From: Lytechinus pictus
Lineage: Eukaryota
Length of the DNA: 64,000 nt
Reading direction: 5' to 3'
Assembly: GCF_037042905.1 (NCBI RefSeq)
Contig: NC_087250.1
Span: 5,086,001-5,150,000 of the forward strand
The position numbers and the translations under genes are program-made. Of this stretch, positions 1-57,115 are shown piece after piece (the first letter of the stretch is position 1; each line of letters starts with the position of its first letter). The notes beneath the pieces were generated by a model. It was not told where the DNA came from and searched no databases. It was given only the letters and a program-made list of their open reading frames with translations.

Positions 1-539
1 CAACGATTAAAGGGATAGAGCCTAGTCGTTCTAAACTTGAAGCTGCGCAGCGGCTGCCGGGCCCATGATCAATTGGGCAAAGCAAATGTTTGGAGTATTT
101 AACTTCATGTCTATTTCGAACAATAAAATATGGATTTTATCTTTAACGATTCAAATTTAACCCGAGTTCAGAATACGGGCCGAAGTGATTAAAACCACAA
201 TCACCCCTTCACTTCGGATCGAGGGCCGCACTAACGGTGATAAAATGTAAACAATTCGCAAACAATGATGTTATTTTTGCTTTTTTGCTAGCTTGTTATT
301 TGTGTTTGTTTTGTTCAGAGTATACGAAGACTGTAGAACGTGGAACGTTTCCAAAAAAAAAAAAAACTAACAACGAGGAGCATTTTGTTTAACACCTAAA
401 AGTGCTTTTAGTGGCATTTCTTTCTCAAAGAATGGGTGTATGAGTGTGTGGACGTGTGTGTAGGGTAAGGTAGAATGTGTGTATGTGTGTATATTAGTTT
501 ATTCTCTCGTGGGGTATAAATCAGATATATATATATTTG

Positions 540-8425: not shown

Positions 8426-11400
8426 ACTATGAGCAGCTGACTTTGTCACATACATGTGAAGCACTTGTAATATCAGGTTGGCTGGACGTGATCCATACTA
8501 GGCCACAGAACAGTATCATTAAGTTCTGATATGCTTCTTTCTTCCATATGACTCCAATACTTCTTGGCATGTCCGAATCAGAAAGAAATGATTCTGCTGG
8601 TGGCACTATCATTTTGTCTCGCAATATAATGTCCTTATGGGGAGGAATGCTTCTTACACTTCGATCGATGAAAAATCCATCTTCCCATTGAATAGCGTGA
8701 TGACTGTAACTTTCTTGATGTATTCCTCTGTTGCCTCTAATACTCTTTGTCGAGTTTAATGCATGCTTCGCAGTGGCTTTGCTTTCCCCTACTTATAGTT
8801 AACCAAGAAAGTCTTGGATTTTTGGACAAATATATGCCCAAACTTGTGCGACACATTAAATGTACGTTCGATTAATTCGCCACAATCGTATTTGAAGTCC
8901 CAAACTATTGGAAAATGTACAGTCCCAGGTAACAATATAGTGTTGGACCAACGTTGGATCAACGTTGGGAATTTTTTTCCCAACGTTGCCTCAACGTTGG
9001 CAGGCAAACGTTGCATCATCGATATAAGTGCACGCGCATACATCGTCAGACCAACAACATTTCCAACGTCAGTTCAACGTTGTTCAGCAACAATGTTCCA
9101 ACGCTGGCAACGTTGATCCAATGTTGGCTAAATAGTCAAATACAACATTGCTACAACGTTGGTAAGCAACGTTGCATCTTCGATAGAAGTGCACGTCCAT
9201 ACATCGTCAGACCAACAACATTTCCAACGTCAGTTCAACGTTGTCCACCACCAATGCTCCAACGTTGGTATAATGTCGGCTGAGTCATCAATAACAGCGT
9301 TGCTGCAACGTTGATGGGCAACGTTGAAGCAGCGATGGACGTGCACGTGCATACATCGTCAGTCCAACTATGTTTACAACGTTGGTTCAACGCTGTCCAG
9401 CAACAATGCTCCAACGTTGTCTGGCAACATTGTTACAACGTTGTCACAACGTTGCTCCAACATTGCTCCAACGTTATTCCAACGTATGGCAGTAATTAAC
9501 AAAACATTAATTGGTTTCAAGGTGAAGTCCACCATTACAACTCTACACTCTAATCTTTATCATCATGTCTTATCCTATCCTAAAATCCTACATCCTAATC
9601 CTAATCCTATTCCTATCATCCTACACCTATCCACTAAATCTTGTCATTGACTCTTATATATAGAGCAACTTTGCTATACTTGGCAGAATACAGTTAATAT
9701 CATTTTCCACACTTAACCTTGAAAATTTCACTTAGAATAATATATTTTGATTATAAATGATATGGTAATGGAGCCACATACTTTTCTGAAACTTTTCATG
9801 GTGGAAATATTGAATAAACATAAATACTCTAATTATTATAGCAATATTACCTAAAATTTTGGTCATTTACTGATGTAATGAATATTCATGAGTGCATAAT
9901 CATTATGTCCAGATGAGGCAGGTATGGCAGCGTTGGTCCAATGTTGGTCCAACGTTGGGTGACGTTGATCCAACGTTGGTCTAATATTGGTCCAATGTTG
10001 ATGGAAAGTTGATTCAACTTTAGTCCAATGTTAGTCCAACGTTGGCGTAAACGTTGATTCAATGTTTGTCTAATATTGGTTAAATGTTGTTGTAACGTTG
10101 ATCCTTTGTTGGTCTAATTTTAAACAAATCCAGCGATGCGCCATCTCCATCAAACAGTTTTCAACACTGTGCCATCATCATCTGTAACCTGTTCATGATT
10201 CTGTCAAAAAACATTACAACTATTATTACAGCTATTCATTTCTTTTCATTCTTTCTGTTACAAGTCTCTTCATATAATTAAGAGGAATCAAGAGAATTAC
10301 GTGTGATATTTATTGAGGCCTTTGTAGCATTCAAACTTTTTTGACATCCTCTTTTTCTCAAACATGACTAATACCAAAAAAACATATGCATATGTAATAA
10401 GAATTAAGATTAAGCTACTGCCTACTGTAACTAAAGAGCGCCTCTTTTTTATTAAGATAGAAGTCAACTGATATCTCAATATGCATGGCCTAGTCTTGCT
10501 CGTGCCATAACTCTTAAATGATATTTCAGCGTCAAGTGTAAACATGCCTCACGTAGCAACTACATGTTTGACTGCAGTTGGAAAACACTCGGTCCAGGCT
10601 AGGCCAGGCAGGACCGACCAGGTCAATTCAAGGCAGCGTATAATAAATAAGGCAGGAATGCCAGGTAGCAAGTCATTTGGTTATTTCAAGTACGGTGTAC
10701 AGTGTTGAGAGCGCGAAAGGGCTGCTGAACTGAGCTCCAACACCAAGCGTAATATTATTATTCATTGAAATGTATTAAAACTCTAATGATTTGCTCTCAT
10801 CTTAAATGTAAAAGATAATTTTATGGAGATGGTTCGTCGTGTTTGCCCCCTGTTCGTGAGCTACATTCCATCAACTCCAACACTGAACTTTAAATCACGA
10901 TTCTCCCAATCGATCCCTGGGGGTCGGTGTTGCTGAATGGGGAAATTGCACGTAGATCATCAACACTGTGCAGCCGCAGTGCCGTGTTGGGTTCAGCAGA
11001 TGACAATCAACACCAGCCTTCAACACAAACTGCCGGAAATACACCATATTTTCCGAGGTCAATCTCAACACCAGCCTGATTCAACTTCAAGTACGGTATT
11101 GTCACAACACCAAAACCAGATTTCAACACTGTACTTGAAATTATTGAAATCACCCAATGACTGTTGCCTTGCCCTTGGTATCGCATACTCGTTCCCACTC
11201 ACACGTATTGCGAGGTTAGTATTAGTCACTCACACAAGTACGAGGTAAGTTAGTATGTTATATACTGAGCAGTGACTGGTGTTAAGTACTTACACTAAAA
11301 TACTAGCGTCGGACAGTACGCGCACGGAAGCTGACTCCGGGATCTTTCGGAGGGGATCAACGGTTGCAGTTACCGATTATCTGCAAGTGCAAAGAAAATC

Positions 11401-12544: not shown

Positions 12545-14100
12545 CAGCGGCGTAACAGGGGTCGGTGGCCAGGGGGGGGCAAGAGCCAAAATTTTCCCGG
12601 GAATATCATGGAACAGGCAATGGCGTCTTAAGGCAAAAATTTTGAGGGGGCGATATGGCGTATCGGGCAAATATATATATATATAAGCGAGCGAGCGAGC
12701 AAATTTTTTTTGACATTTTTATTGCAAAAATCAAATTTTGTGATAGATTTTGACATAATGTTAAAAAGATGATATCTTATTCACCCTCCTCTCTTTCATT
12801 TTTTCTCTGTTTTTTGTACGCCACGGTGAGCAGGATTTTTGTTATGATTGTGAGCATCAGGGCGAAGCTCTATATGCTCGAGGGGGCTGAGTATGGCGCT
12901 TCTGGCAAGAAGTAGCTTAATATAGGTCCCGAGCGAGCGAAGCGAGCGAGATAAAAAATCACCTTTTCATGAGAATCTAACATGAAGATAGATTTTAACG
13001 TGATATTCAGAAAAATATAATACACTTTCCTTTCTTTCCTCATTTTTTTTTTGTTGTTGTAGAACTTTGGGGGCCATGGTCCAAACTCATCCATATAACA
13101 GTGCTTTATGGGTGGGGTCCAGGGCAGAGCCCCGGAACCTCTTGATATCAAAGCCATTTTAAACCTTACAGATGGCCACTTATTTTAATCAAATTGCGTG
13201 TATATTTACATAGATTTAACACAACACATAAATTCAATGCAGTTGTGTATCGTAATCATCCAAATATTGTGAGGGGCACACCATAGCAAATGTGGGAAAA
13301 TTTGTAAAAAGTCACCAGCGAGCGAAGCGAGCCAGAAAAAAAAGGCCTGTTAAAATGAAATTCTAATTATGTGATAGATTTTTACATCATTTTAGCAAAT
13401 ATCATGTCATATATTTTTTTCATTCATCTCATTTCGCTGCCTCCTTTATTTTCTTTTATTTCCCCTTGGCTGTGGAACCACCCCCGGTACGCCAGTGCTT
13501 CAACGTAAAGCTTAATGCAGGAAGGGTCCATATAGGGGCCCGTTATAGAACCCATTAAAGGTTACAGATGAAGAGCCCCCACTGCACGGGGTCTTGACTC
13601 TTATTTGGAGATTTAGCAAGTTTATGATAGACTTTCATACGACATTATGCTATATACCATCCATTTTTCTTCCCGCTCATTATCTCAATCCTCGGCAGCC
13701 CGGTAGTGTACGTTATCTTGTCCCTGTTCTTTATTTTCCAATTTAGATTTTGGCTAATTCCATTTTGCCTTTATTTCCCGCTTTTGTTTGCCTTTTTGTC
13801 ATCTTTAATTTATTTCCCTGTCTTACTAATCATGCTAATGTATTTGTATATCGGGGCGAACTGTTCTTTCTCACTTGTTGTTTTTTCCTTCCTTTTCCCG
13901 TTATCTTTCCGTTTTCCTTTTTTTTATGTTTTTTCTTAGTTTTCTTTTCCCTTTTCCTTTCCCCTTTCCCTTTTTTTCTTTCCTTTCCCTTTCCCTTTCC
14001 CCCTTTTTTTCTTCTTTTTCCCGTTTTTTTTAATTTTCCCGGTGAGCTCCGCCAGGGGGGGCAGCTTGCCCCCCCTGCCCCCCCGCCTGTTACGCCACTG
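12545..14100. mobile_element. Non-autonomous hAT-type element
   Basis: TIR CAGCGGCGTAACAGG ... CCTGTTACGCCACTG; perfect 8-bp TSD ATACCAAG (12537-12544, 14101-14108). Confidence 0.9.
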
Positions 14101-24867: not shown

Positions 24868-25001
24868 ATGTGTGGAATTCGAATGATACTAGCCATTCAT
24901 TTTGAACTCATATAGAGAGGAAGGGTTCAGTGTAGAATTGAAGCAAATCAATTTCAGTGATGAATTGTTTTTCTTGTTTACATTGTAGAGTGTTGAGGAA
25001 C

Positions 25002-26170
25002 ATGATACGTCGGAGAAAGTTCATTGTTCTGGCTGCCATTCTCAGCGCTGCTTGCTACTTGCAACTGTTTCTTCTCATCGAGCAGACGGACCTGAGCAAC
25101 GACAGAGACATCATCCTCCCCGTCAGGTCGCCAGACTTGGAAGAGCCGAGGAGGTCCATCTCCTCGAACGGATCAATGACGGGAGACACAAGGGAAGCAG
25201 GGTCTTTGGGCCAAGCTTTGACCCGATCTTGGACCACACGAAACAACCACGTGAAACCACGTTACAGGGATTTCAGGACAAATTCAGAAGTAAAAGATGC
25301 CGTGGTTAATAGTACCTTGATGTCAAGGACTAAGCCAATGGTACAACAGTTCAATTCTGGAAGGAAATCCACGATAAACCACACCATAGCAAACGACAAT
25401 GACCTTACGTATCACAAAGGCTCCCGGAAGAACCAGGTTGTGAAAAGTGTTACGGGCATTCCAATGACAACACGCTCACGTGATCAATCCGCTGTGAAGC
25501 AGGGCGATCCAGGCGCAGACTTCTTGGTAAAGCAGCCCCAAAACGGTACAGAATCGAAACCAAAGCAAAAAGTTGTTGACAAGAAGCTTCGAGAGCTTGA
25601 CGCAGAATCTGTACTACTCAAAGCCGAGATTGATCACCGGAAGATGCATGTTTCGACGACAAGGGCTCCATCCCACCGCTGCCACCGAAATGTACACCTG
25701 TGGGCTAACGCAGCCAATGAACTGGGATACCGTAAAGGTAAACACCTGATAGACTGCCCCAGAAGTGTCTGCGATGTCCAGATAACCCTCGACATGGACG
25801 TCAACACCATGCAGGAGAATGAAGCGCTTGTCCTGTTCCATTGGTCGAGCTGGGACTGGGGAAAACTGCATAGCTTTCGGCCACCAGGGCAGAAATGGGT
25901 CTTCTACACCCTGGAGAGTCCTCGGCACACACGGCGTCATGTCATCCCGCCAGATAAATACTATAACACTTCGTATGATTACATAATGACCTTCAGGTAC
26001 GACTCGGACTTCCGTGCTGATTATGGGCAATATAGGGCTGGGATACCAGAGCTTGAGGCGGACGACAATAAAAATTGGGCTGAAAATCGAACCAAGCTGG
26101 TTGCCTGGATGGCATCAAACTGCCGCGGCACATCGTGGCCAAGAATGGACTTCGTTCAGAGGCTCTCAAG
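25002..26170 (+). CDS. Alpha-1,3-fucosyltransferase (GT10 family), coding exon 1: cytoplasmic tail, TM anchor, long stem, N-terminal catalytic domain
   Basis: ATG at 25002 lies just after a splice acceptor (ttcttgtttacattgtAG, 24987-88). MIRRRK plus hydrophobic FIVLAAILSAACYLQLFLLI is a type II Golgi anchor. GT10-like motifs: RPPGQKWVFYTLESP, MTFRYDSDF, KLVAWMASNC. Donor AG|gtaaga at 26170/26171 (phase 2). Confidence 0.93.
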
Positions 26171-26195
26171 GTAAGAGTTTGTTAGAAGTACATTC

Positions 26196-27540: not shown

Positions 27541-28261
27541 AGGTGACGGTTCGTACGCCAGGGTGCCTCTTGCATTTTATTATTGTTTTAAACCGTCAAA
27601 CAGTAGCATAGAGATAGGGGGCCTTTGGGTGCTTGCCCCCCCCCCCAAAAAATAAAAAAATAGTAATAATAAATAATAAATAAATTAAATAAATAAATCA
27701 CAATCAGAAAAAAAAGAAAAGGAAAGAGAGAAGGGTGAGTCTGATATTTTGCTGTATATTATGTCAAAATATATCACGAAATTGGAATTTGCAATAAATA
27801 TCGAAAAATTCCCGCTCGCTTCGGTCGCTCGCAACTTTTATTCAATTTTGCCCGATACGCCATATCTGGCCCCCTCAAAAGTTTTGGGTCATTACGCCAC
27901 TTCCGTCAAATTTCAAACATTCAACTCGACTGACAATGTTAAGCAGTAGGTGAGTCATAAGTTATTGACCCCCCTTATGTCTTTGCTTTTATTATCATTG
28001 GGTGATTTCAAGTCCGGTGTTAGTGTTGGTGTTAGTGTTGGAAGCACAGTTTGGATTGGATTTCCTCGCTCCAAAACTTATTCTGAGTTTACAAAAATAA
28101 CCCAGACCACAATATTGACACCTCAACACCTTGTGAGAGACTTTTCAGGACTATCTCCCTTTTATGTTTGGTGTTACACTCGTGTAAACATTGCTATAAC
28201 ACCAACACCAAAGGGTCAACACTGAACTTGAAATCACACATTGTGCTCATATATTTTGCAG

Positions 28262-28772
28262 ACACATCTCAATTGATATGTACGGAAAGTGTGGCAATCT
28301 CAGCTGTCCTCCCGGGACTCAAGAATGCAACGAAAGACTGAAGCAGTATAAGTTCTACCTCGCTCTCGAAAACAGTGAATGCACGGACTATATCACCGAG
28401 AAGTTCTGGATCCAGGCCCTGGTTCGGGGTCTAGTCCCCATTGTGTATGGTCCTCAACGGAGCGACTATGAAAAGGTCGCACCTCCGAATTCCTTCATAC
28501 ACATCCAGGACTTCGCGACGACGAAGGAACTGGCAGCGTATTTGCAGAGGGTGGACGAAGACGACGCGCTGTATAACGCGTATTTCCAATGGAAGAAGGT
28601 TGGGTCCTTGAAACCTTACGGGACTGAACCGAGTATCTTTTGCCAGCTTGGGGATCGCTTGACAGCCGATGAGAGGGCGCTGCAGGCTGGGACATACGTG
28701 CCTTCTCCGCAGAAAGACTGGAAAGTCTGGTGGGGCCAATCGTGTAGAAGGCAGGGAGATACACCCGAGTAG
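28262..28772 (+). CDS. Alpha-1,3-fucosyltransferase (GT10 family), coding exon 2: GDP-fucose-binding C-terminal domain
   Basis: Acceptor ttttgcAG ends at 28261. The phase-2 join reads RLSR-HISIDMYGKCG in frame. Contains the signature YKFYLALENSECTDYITEKFW, plus VPIVYG, APPNSFIHIQDF and YNAYFQWK. Stop TAG at 28770-28772. Confidence 0.95.
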
Positions 28773-38042: not shown

Positions 38043-38819
38043 GAAAAAAGAAGAAAGAAAGAAAGAAAAAAAAAAGAGAATAAAAAAAATACATAAATAA
38101 ATAAAGAATGGCACAAAGAAATACACAAAAAAATAAACATAAATTAAACAGCAAAAATAAGTAAGAAAGCAAGAAAAAACAGATATGAACGAAAGGAAGA
38201 ATAACGGAAGAACGGAGAAAAGAAGGGGGAAAGGGGGAAAGAGAGAGAGGTCGGGGAAAATCTAAAGTGCTTCACGAATAAGTGTGTCTGAACTTTGGAA
38301 AGTTGCACACCAAGCAAAAAACCGATGGAATGATCCCGATGATGAAAATAACAAGGCGATGTGGATTTAGCGAGGATTTATGACAAGTTCACCTTTAAAC
38401 CCTGTCAAGTTCAGAACAGCTTTTCACGAAGAGTCGTGTCAGCGACCCTCGCTGATGAATTGTTATAAGCTACGGAAATCCTTGCATTTGATTGGCTAAT
38501 GGTGGACGTGTCGTTAAAATGCGCCGACAAGGCGTTTCATGAAATATGCCCAGATGGGACATGGAGCTATACAGCGAGCACGAACCGTATGCCTCGCAAT
38601 CATGTCCGAAAAATGACTACAAAAGCAGAGTTGTTTATTAAAAAAAGGCTCTAAAACCCCTTTTCCAACTTTCAGAGGAATCCAATTATTGCCACGATCC
38701 TAGACCTGTGGAATTAATTGATAAACACAACATTAAATTGCCTTTGCACTGTTAAATTTGAGTCTTTCATATTCAGTGTAACATTTTCACACTTTGACAG
38801 GATCACATATTCATTATGC

Positions 38820-54513: not shown

Positions 54514-55622
54514 TAAGATTGATCGCTTAGCTTCGTGTTACTGGTTACGGGCCCCGGTAGGCACACTGAGATTTAAAGGTAGAATTAAGTTCAACCTGAA
54601 GAAAAGCTTCTTGTAAAAAGAGCAGAAAAATAATTTAAAAAATATTGGTGCAGGCTTGAGGAAAATCCATTAAAGATTAAGAAAGTTAGTAGAATTTAAT
54701 GTTTTGGATTTGTGACATCATAGACGAACAGCTGCCTCATATGTTATATGATATAAAACGCATAAATTTCCATTTTTGAACGGTTCGTGACGACTTATTT
54801 TTGTGTACGTCTTACGCCATTGGCAACACCCCTTATGTAAAAAAATAGAAATATGACCCTCCCCCCCAAAAAAATACCTTGATTAGTTTATTTTTCAGCG
54901 AAACCCTTTTTTTTTGGGGGGGGAGGGGGTCGAACGATCTTTTTCTGACAAAAATCACCATCATTTTTTTCGAGTGAAAACGTTTTTTTTTTTTTTGGGG
55001 GGGGGGCTTGTCAATTTTTTCCAGTGCCCTGCCGACCAAGCGATACAGTTGGCAAGTACAGTATCAGCAATCAATGGGCATTTCCCATCCCTTACATACA
55101 AAGTGACGTTTAACTCGAAACTCGTCGGACGTTAGAAGACAACACTGTGTCAACGTTGGAAGAGAACGCTGCCAACGTTGGAGCAACGTTGTTGCCAGAT
55201 ATCGTCGGAGTCGGACCAACGTTGTAAACATCGTTGGACTGACGATTCTAATTTCAAGGATGCAGCGTTGCCTGCCACACAATTGACGCAACGTTAATTG
55301 TTAAAACGAATTCACAAGGTTACGTTAGTCCAACGTTGTACGCAAGCTTTATTGTTGATTGGAATGGTACGTTGCTGGGCAGGTCACATATCAAGGTCAA
55401 ATGTAGCTTGAGGTCAAATGCTAAAGTTCACCCACAAAGCTCTCTCGTGACGCAACCTTGCAACCATGACACAATATTCTACCTTGGTTGTAGAAGCACG
55501 CGTGAATGTGTTTCCGTCAAAGGTCACGTGATGAGGAAATGGATGTTACATTCAACCAGTAACGTAATAAGCCAAACATTTTGAGGGGGTCAAACATGTT
55601 GTGTGGGACAACACACGCCACA

Positions 55623-55948
55623 ACTGGGCGTTGTGGCGTGTGCCTGTATTCCAAGCTATGTGGGGAAGTTACAAATTGATCAGAGGTTCGAGGTTCGAGC
55701 CCTGGTCACGTCTATCGGGGGAGCGTTTCATGAAAGGACTTGTCGGACGTTTTATCCGACAAGTCCCATTTTATCCGACAGTTACCATAGGAACAGTGCC
55801 TTTCAGCCAATCAACATGCATGAAAGATGTCAGATCTGACAAATGTTGATGAAACACTCCCCAGATGGTGACGTTAAAAGTCGGTCCCAGACGTAAATAA
55901 TCATATCTGATTGATACACGTCTGACAAAACTCAAATACACACACACA
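55623..55948 (+). mobile_element. Candidate 7SL (SRP RNA)-derived SINE, interrupted by a MITE
   Basis: Head ACTGGGCGTTGTGGCGTGTGCCTGTATTCCAAGCTATGTGGGGAAGTT resembles the SRP RNA 5' Alu domain. B box GGTTCGAGCCC at 55692-55702; body GTCTATC(G/A)GATGGTGACGTTAAAAGTCGGTCCC; (CA)n end. Confidence 0.7.
55719..55861. mobile_element. Harbinger-like MITE inside the 7SL-headed element
   Basis: CGG|GGGAGCGTTTCAT ... ATGAAACACTCCC|CAG. Confidence 0.8.
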
Positions 55949-56621
55949 TTTTTTTAAAGTCGCAAGCGAGCGAAGTGTGTGAGCAAAAATGTTGACCTTG
56001 TTAATACAAAGAGCTAATTTCATGGTAGATTGTATCAATCTATGTCATATTTCACCCTTGTCAGTCCATAATTCATTTCTTCTTTTTCTCTTTTTTTTTG
56101 GTGGGGGACCCCCCCCCCCCCCCCCCTCCCCCCATCTATACGTTTGAGCGTTCAATGGCAGTGACACGATATATGCTCATGCTACATTTTGATCTGCGGC
56201 CTTAATATCTCAGAGGGTCGGAGTTGGTATTGTAACAGAGTTTTTGGTTCAGAATAATGTATATAGGTTATAATTCGGGTTTCTTTAGTTATGGAGGTTA
56301 GGTTACAGGGGCCGCGGAACGAACGGTTTTCAAAGTGGGCGGGGGAGGGGGGCTGACCATGCAAAAATCACAATCCTATGGTCATCTTTACGTTTTTTTT
56401 GTACACGGTTTTGGAAAAAAGTGGAGGGGGGGGGGGGGCTGAAGCCCCCCTCCCCGCTTCCGCGGCCCCTGGGTTATAAGGTGTGTTTGGCTTATAACGT
56501 GTAGACTTTCCATTGGAGTAATCATCGCCGGAGCAAATGTCGTGGAACCTCAATGGCAGGTATCAATCAAAGGATTCATCGTTGGGTGATAAAGATAACT
56601 GATAAGTTATTCATGTTCAGT

Positions 56622-56935
56622 GGAGCGCCGTGGCCCAGTGGATTAGTCTCCGAACTTGGAAACAGAGGGTCGTGGGTTCGAATCCCAGCCATGGCGTAGT
56701 TTCCTTCAGCAAGGAATTCATCCACAGCGTGCTGCACTCGACCCAGGTGAGGTATATGGGTACCGGCAGGAAGTTATTCCTCAAAAAGCTGTTTGCACAT
56801 GAATCGGTAGCCTATATAGCATAGCCGGGGTAATAATAATAGCAGGGTACGCTGGGAGAACAGTTTTCGGAACTGAAGTGGCTACCCTGGGTAAATATAC
56901 CGTTATCATTATTGTTGTTGTTATTATTATTATTG
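56622..56935 (+). mobile_element. tRNA-derived SINE, inserted in a palindromic MITE (~56563-57077)
   Basis: GGAGCGCCGTGGCCCAGTGGATTAG..GGGTTCGAATCCC head and (ATT)n tail; near-colinear with 60565-60858. Confidence 0.88.
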
Positions 56936-57115
56936 TTTCTCCAACTTATACCACAAGGCTAACACATCAACTGTTGTTGCTGTGTTACCCTTGCCGTGTT
57001 AGCCTTGTGGTATTGTTGGAAAGACATGAATAACTTATCTTTTATCTTTATCACTCAAGATGATTCCTTCGATTTGATATTTAATATAATGGGATAGCTT
57101 GACCCAGATAATTTA

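Follow-up and report, generated by a model that had tools for sequence, protein, structure and literature searches.

SINEs with a head derived from 7SL RNA have been called 'extremely rare', the hosts named being supraprimates, hagfish and the shrew mole (PMC7245038, PMC13023118). The family SINE1-1_EBu of the hagfish Eptatretus burgeri was presented as the first SINE1 outside Euarchontoglires (Kojima 2020, PMC7245038), and the shrew-mole family Urop was added in 2026 (Kosushkin et al., PMC13023118), whose account gives none before it outside supraprimates and hagfish. The SINE1 lineages described in these two papers all keep a 7SL 3' segment after a central deletion of ~183 nt, and have the whole Alu domain with helix 5. 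SINE1-1_EBu is described as having arisen as a chimera of 7SL sequence with a pre-existing tRNA-derived SINE (PMC7245038). Each new lineage of this kind has served as an argument that selection favours the Alu-domain fold as an aid to reach the LINE machinery (PMC7245038, PMC13023118).

The DeuSINE superfamily provides the second point of comparison. Within the Deu domain, the widely conserved part is Nin-DC (PMC4758252, PMC4824008), and a sea urchin DeuSINE, SINE2-3_SP, is known (PMC4824008). Heads within this group are exchangeable, 5S rRNA replacing tRNA in SINE3 and AmnSINE1, and those described in PMC4824008 and PMC4758252 are of tRNA or 5S rRNA type, never 7SL. Among the full-text literature matches listed there is no invertebrate 7SL-derived SINE; 7SL is not mentioned in the 8 supplementary files of PMC11481361 other than its bivalve SINE library.

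The element described below lies at 55623-55948 of a 64-kb stretch of DNA, which was analysed as a whole and is referred to as the window. Judged by its sequence, it is likely to be a chimeric SINE, in which a tRNA-derived SINE of the Nin-DC/Deu type received by grafting the 5' Alu subdomain of 7SL RNA.

General features of the window

The window has a G+C content of 34-40%. The only gene found in it encodes a GT10 alpha-1,3-fucosyltransferase, in two exons on the + strand (24942-26174 and 28200-28772), with Pfam matches to Glyco_tran_10_N (E 3.9e-12) and Glyco_transf_10 (E 5.6e-49). Its best named relatives are from the echinoderms Diadema, Lytechinus, Holothuria and Acanthaster (45-55% identity), and the host is likely to be an echinoderm or at any rate an ambulacrarian. 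A long near-perfect hairpin at 56919-57040 (+) matches the plant MIR6274 model at 35.6 bits (gathering score 80) and is probably another inverted-repeat element rather than a microRNA. The palindromic stretch at 9235-9327, which matches the MIR2600 model on both strands at ~32-33 bits each (gathering score 98), is likely a foldback repeat. Homopolymer and G/C-rich tracts, including a T run followed by G5 and then a long C run, occur at 56087-56135 and 56412-56471, and a G-rich/C-rich hairpin within them draws several weak microRNA-model matches.

Architecture, copies and termini of the element

The locus consists of a 180-nt SINE copy that is split by a 146-bp inverted-repeat element, the length of 180 nt being that obtained when the insert is excised at the joint seen in public contigs. 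Along the + strand, a GC-rich head is followed by a duplicated GGTTCGA, a conserved block split by the insert, a unique tail, an (AC)5A end and a run of seven Ts. The sequence-only reading had proposed the order 7SL-like head, B box, Nin-DC/Deu-like block, tail and (CA)n, and this arrangement is borne out; the insert, which it placed at 55719-55861, is moved by the contig joints to 55718-55863.

A second, insert-free copy is located at 1478-1601 on the opposite strand, where the earlier reading had counted a single copy in the window. It covers SINE nt 16-140 (nhmmer E 1.2e-18) and is recovered by blastn in pieces of 75% identity over 76 nt and 88% over 42 nt. This copy is older, with its first ~15 nt missing or diverged, and its lack of the insert shows that the insert in the 55623-55948 copy is secondary. 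A third, tail-only candidate at 482-537 (-) was dropped (nhmmer E 7.6).

Logan contigs of four public runs were mapped to 55400-56100 (701 bases) at a likeness of at least 80%. The runs come from four studies; X1, X4 and X6 belong to organism A and X8 to organism B, these being coded labels that may not stand for the species of the window. Thousands of contigs from the four runs map on the 701-base stretch, and their depth was summed, a quantity that does not equal copy number. Depth is 0 at 55400-55543 in all four runs, so the unique flanks and the locus itself were seen in none of them. In the organism-A runs it is 315-1589 at 55544-55615 (2-7 in X8), climbs to 31781-65388 in the bin 55616-55639 and to 161675-558002 over 55640-55711, and reaches ~1.0-3.9 million over the first ~90 bp of the insert (55712-55807). 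A sharp fall over the last ~50 bp of the insert leads to 0.25-0.30 million at 55856-55879, followed by 1.0-1.7 million at 55880-55927; after the bin 55928-55951, depth drops from ~0.6-0.8 million to 446-1093. The profile of X8 has the same shape at lower values.

The depth steps at 55616-55639 and 55928-55951 mark 5' and 3' ends common to many copies. The first of them coincides with position 1 of the SRP model, as had been anticipated for dispersed copies with a sharp 5' edge at 7SL +1. One X6 contig joins a tail to a head (55948 to 55623, 4 nt apart) and so defines both termini; insert-free joints running from 55713/55717 to 55864 are present in all four runs. On three independent lines, namely the second copy, the contig depth and an empty-site paralogue (see below), the element is a genuine, abundant and dispersed SINE of ~180 nt with many copies.

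These data bear on the idea that the locus is a solitary 7SL pseudogene fragment, or a contaminant or transfer from a vertebrate Alu, B1 or hagfish SINE1. Such an origin is suggested only by the likeness of the head to 7SL and to the mir-1268 model, and it is already contradicted, to the point of being extremely improbable: there are two copies in the window, the head is covered by at least 100 distinct contigs in each organism-A run and differs from the bulk of the contigs at one base only, and the element lies inside an older local repeat for which the same window contains an empty-site paralogue. Furthermore, its Nin-DC body and (CA)n end are unlike the poly(A) found in Alu and B1, and unlike the RTE tail and (AAC)n of SINE1-1_EBu.

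Short sequence patterns were also searched in large collections. A 22-nt head pattern gave 0 matches in viral, genome and metagenome contig collections. A 16-nt core pattern was found in at least 119 metagenome and at least 117 prokaryote-genome stretches, all of which are chance matches; when 236 loci with this pattern were compared by blastn, none extended beyond 18-19 nt. A 19-nt core pattern occurred in one viral contig, as a bare 20-nt chance match.

The 7SL-like head

The Rfam search of the 64-kb window found no 7SL gene, and only four matches at E <=0.1, one of which is the match of RF00017 (Metazoa_SRP) to the head. It covers 55623-55713, starts at model position 1 and skips the S domain; only the first ~50 nt (55623-55672), equivalent to helices 2-4 in the Alu 5' subdomain of SRP RNA, are 7SL-like. 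The E value is 9e-5 in a 4-kb search and 0.0014 in the search of the whole window. When 121 nt of the head region are searched alone, RF00017 is the top match (26.3 bits, E 1.3e-5). A second SRP-clan family overlaps it with a lower score, and the mir-1268 model, which we take to be Alu-derived, matches the head at 23.7 bits. The covariance model recovers the 7SL-like head that had been proposed by comparison with human 7SL, with a score of 28.6 bits that is far below the gathering score of 70, and the derivation from 7SL rests on this match together with the structure counts given below.

In the RF00017 alignment, the head agrees with the consensus at 28 of the first 36 positions and has one inserted base, close to the 29 of 36 that had been put forward against human 7SL. 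In a segment running from helix 3 (3' strand) via the UGUAAU turn to helix 4 and its loop, 17 of 19 positions agree with the consensus, at the correct distance from position 1 (a count that uses the family base at 55649). Box A, GGCGTTGTGG at 55627-55636, matches human box A as printed in PMC7245038 at 8 of 10 positions. The unpaired parts, namely the UGGC loop, the UGUA turn (55645-55648) and the AGCUA loop, also match the 7SL consensus. Position 55649 is the sole position of the head where the window copy differs from the bulk of the mapped contigs: the copy has T, while A is found in ~99% of the mapped depth (106, 102, 102 and 32 distinct contigs in the four runs) and restores the SRP consensus UGUAAU. 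As a consequence, the fourth pair of a TTCC/GGAA helix, included in the sequence-only reading, is not a feature of the family.

In helices 2-4, 12 of the 14 model pairs are standard. This number is reached by 181 of 100000 mononucleotide shuffles, a control biased by the fitting of the alignment to the structure. ACU (55623-55625) and AGU (55667-55669) form helix 2 with A-U, C-G and U-A pairs, two of which differ from the consensus in both bases. Of the eight pairs of helix 3, six are kept, two of them as G-U/U-G, and the remaining two are broken (U-U and G-G), so that the differences from the consensus are not all compensated; helix 4 (UCC/GGA) and the UGUA turn are present. The proposal that compensatory changes preserve the Alu fold holds for two pairs of helix 2, but it does not extend to the two broken pairs of helix 3. 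The Alu fold is not the minimum-energy structure of the 50-nt head (-3.5 kcal/mol for the SRP model structure vs -9.3, z +1.2). The real Alu fold depends also on tertiary pairs and protein.

That the energy optimum lies elsewhere, and that the SRP match is below threshold, would be expected if the element were an ordinary tRNA-derived SINE2 of the Nin-DC/Deu superfamily, with a decayed head that resembles 7SL by chance or through box-A likeness. By eye, the first ~17 nt do resemble the starts of the printed tRNA-derived heads of SINE2-2_SP and Lsa_Nin_1, and the head of Lsa_3 also begins in a similar way. However, the tRNA-like head of a SINE2, with cloverleaf and tRNA-type box A, is not found here: the tRNA families (RF00005) give no match at E <=10 in the 121-nt search of the head region, ARAGORN reports 0 tRNA genes at the element, and box A has the 7SL form rather than the tRNA form. 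The 17 of 19 agreement and the closing of helix 2 by two double changes also speak against a decayed tRNA head, as does the E value of ~3e-7 per 64-kb window that applies when RF00017 alone is considered (0.0014 / 4227 families). On these grounds a tRNA origin of the head is rather unlikely, though it deserves to be taken seriously.

Convergence offers another route to the same structure, in which a head of non-7SL origin would have acquired an SRP9/14-binding, Alu-like fold. The pairing of helices 2-4 is kept while 8 of 36 positions differ from the consensus, a pattern consistent with this route, and the Alu-domain structure has been described as independently and repeatedly selected in SINEs (PMC7245038, PMC13023118). 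Against it stands the fact that the unpaired, sequence-specific UGGC, UGUA and AGCUA also match 7SL, for which copying is the simpler explanation, and no intermediate forms were seen; we consider convergence very improbable. A head copied from 7SL RNA is the reading followed below.

The B-box region and the Nin-DC/Deu-like block

The head is followed by a linker and a tRNA-type B-box region (55673-55709), recognised by sequence and by its hairpin fold. GGTTCGA occurs here as a tandem duplicate (55685-55691 and 55692-55698). Its first copy, of 7 nt, is upstream of the B box, and the second is contained in it (GGTTCGAGCCC, 55692-55702), so the B box noted earlier behind the head is confirmed and gains an upstream duplicate. 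The tandem duplication creates a strong hairpin, of 13 bp at 55677-55708; 55673-55709 folds at -19 kcal/mol (z -3.7), and 0 of 200 shuffles fold equally well. The duplication is common to the copy at 1478-1601.

The B box fits GGTTCGANNCC perfectly, which is the tRNA-type B-box consensus, and in this respect the element agrees with SINE2. Only 6 of 11 positions match human 7SL box B as printed in PMC7245038. A global model alignment places 55673-55713 on helix 5 and the 7SL 3' end, the hairpin at 55677-55708 falling on helix 5, with a posterior in truncated mode of only ~0.4-0.5. Compared by eye, the fit of the same stretch to the B-box part of tRNA-derived heads printed for Nin-DC SINEs is at least as good as its fit to 7SL, and from the B box to the core the stretch matches the tRNA-derived head of Lsa_Nin_1 in 25 of 30 columns, with 4 gaps. 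Both the B box and the Lsa_Nin_1 match can be cited in favour of the tRNA-head alternative discussed above. In the chimeric reading, the Lsa_Nin_1 match, the weak agreement with 7SL box B and the low posteriors lead us to regard the B-box part as a remnant of the tRNA-derived parent, and not as a 7SL 3' end. The linker and B-box part are, judging from these comparisons, probably what remains of an older tRNA-derived SINE.

A convincing 7SL 3' segment is absent, and we lean towards the view that the element lacks this hallmark of SINE1. It works like a SINE1, while strict membership, defined by 7SL 5' and 3' segments and by a match to the host 7SL, is not established. The earlier description as a SINE1 family of ~180 nt is upheld in its length and many copies; as only ~50 nt are 7SL-like and the B-box part looks derived from a tRNA SINE, chimera is the better term.

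The Nin-DC/Deu-like block begins with 8 nt on the 5' side of the insert (55710-55717) and continues behind it (55864-55888). In a by-eye comparison with sequences printed in supplementary file 4 of PMC4758252, it matches Nla_Nin at 26 of 34 positions with one gap (using the family base T at 55714), and the fit to Pan_3 and Lsa_Nin is similar; the Deu/Nin-like body that had been proposed earlier now has printed sequences as its basis. The 20 nt from 55865 are identical in the copy at 1478-1601. In distinction to DeuSINE/Nin-DC families, only the first ~34 nt of the ~120-nt Nin domain (length from PMC4824008) are recognisable, and by its sequence the block is a partial domain between head and tail.

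Tail, insertion site and secondary insert

The block is followed by a unique tail (55889-55937) and a microsatellite end, (AC)5A at 55938-55948, which is delimited by the sequence, the depth drop and the edge of the paralogue alignment. Over the last ~70 nt of the SINE, summed depth is ~4-5 times that of the head (1.0-1.7 vs 0.16-0.30 million), as expected if the tail is common to a LINE, to other SINE families or to 5'-truncated copies. From its sequence, the unique tail is presumably the recognition part derived from a LINE partner. Directly 3' of the SINE copy, the flank has a run of seven Ts (55949-55955). This run is part of the host repeat, as shown by TTTGTAAAAAG at the same point of the paralogue, and could possibly provide a Pol III stop for this copy only.

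The element sits in an older low-copy repeat (55547-55611 with 55949-56024), which has a summed depth of a few hundred to ~1900 in the organism-A runs and shows weak inverted ends at 55565-55582 and 55986-56003. Alignment of the flanks reveals an empty-site paralogue of this host repeat (13229-13371, +). The alignment of the left flank stops at 55611 and that of the right flank begins at 55949, and the two abut at 13300/13301 of the paralogue, from which it follows that the inserted segment is 55612-55948.

The inserted segment therefore includes 11 extra bases (55612-55622) at the 5' junction, which repeat SINE nt 10-20 exactly in reverse-complement orientation. With SINE nt 1-2 added, these bases make up one arm of a perfect 13-nt inverted repeat, the other arm being 55630-55642 (100% complementary, 5-nt loop). 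They are specific to this copy and not a family feature, as the depth of the bin 55592-55615 stays at ~400-640. We infer a snap-back or template jump of the reverse transcriptase as it ran off the 5' end of the RNA, which would put that end at or next to 55623. The CA-rich 5' flank was considered as a target-site duplication and rejected, because these 11 nt are inverted SINE sequence within the insertion. The check for target-site duplications suggested by the sequence-only reading gave none at either junction; there is no direct repeat of more than 7 nt between the flanks, and the paralogue runs through the site without a break. Variable target-site duplications, or none, are common with LINE clades other than L1.

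The secondary insertion (55718-55863) is a MITE-like element of 146 bp that is not part of the SINE. Its terminal inverted repeats have arms of 21 nt that are 86% complementary, and it is the deepest feature in the mapped runs. Within it, 19 nt are duplicated in tandem (55750-55787) and a perfect hairpin of 12 bp lies at 55736-55766; many copies of the insert diverge after ~55813. No clear target duplication is seen at 55718-55863, where there is one extra A at 55863. A partial relative of the insert occurs at 38504-38544.

Relationship to known SINEs

Of the families described, SINE1-1_EBu is alike in that a 7SL-like head was combined with body and tail from an earlier tRNA-derived SINE, in its use of a LINE that needs a specific tail and microsatellite end rather than of L1 and poly(A), as is presumed for the present element, and in occurring outside Euarchontoglires. 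In contrast to the ~50 nt of 7SL-like sequence in the present element, it is described as keeping 5' (96 nt) and 3' segments of 7SL, and so the whole Alu domain. SINE1-1_EBu carries a box B of the 7SL type, a bipartite tail derived from RTE and (AAC)n; the present element has a tRNA-type B box, a Nin-DC/Deu fragment and (CA)n, and its host is probably an invertebrate.

Alu/FLAM, B1, the tree-shrew Tu and the shrew-mole Urop likewise have a head that begins at 7SL position 1 and contains box A and the subdomain of helices 2-4, and the Tu types are 7SL/tRNA composites (PMC13023118). According to the same source, these families keep the 7SL 3' end after the ~183-nt deletion and rely on L1 and poly(A) tails, whereas the present element has no recognisable 7SL 3' segment, and a core domain and specific tail instead. 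With the DeuSINE/Nin-DC families (SINE2-3_SP and the gastropod Lsa_Nin and Nla_Nin), as described, it shares the start of Nin-DC directly behind the head.

Proposed origin and significance

The evidence tips somewhat towards the view that a 7SL-headed SINE arose independently in an invertebrate deuterostome, by grafting of only the 5' Alu subdomain, the SRP9/14-binding helices 2-4. In this scenario ~50 nt, comprising helices 2-4 and the 7SL-type box A, would have been copied from the 5' end of 7SL/SRP RNA, and a short linker and the tRNA-type B box with its hairpin would have been kept from an older tRNA-derived SINE. The body would be the first ~34 nt of the Nin-DC (Deu) core, followed by the unique tail with its (CA)n end. 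RNA polymerase III is predicted to start at 55623 under the direction of boxes A and B, and a LINE reverse transcriptase that recognises the tail and microsatellite end would copy the RNA into new sites. By analogy with what has been proposed for Alu, the 7SL-like subdomain may serve as a binding site for SRP9/14 and deliver the RNA to ribosomes engaged in synthesis of the LINE protein. The 55623-55948 copy landed in an older repeat, with the putative 11-nt snap-back artefact at its 5' junction, and was later split by the MITE-like element.

If the head should prove to be a decayed tRNA head, the element would be an ordinary new SINE family. If the chimeric reading is true, it would be the first 7SL-headed SINE outside vertebrates, and the 5' subdomain alone, without the 7SL 3' end, would be enough for selection in a SINE. 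As in hagfish, this invertebrate case would pair a 7SL head with a stringent, tail-recognising LINE. The Deu superfamily would then have used the three classical Pol III head types (tRNA, 5S and 7SL), a clear example of module swapping.
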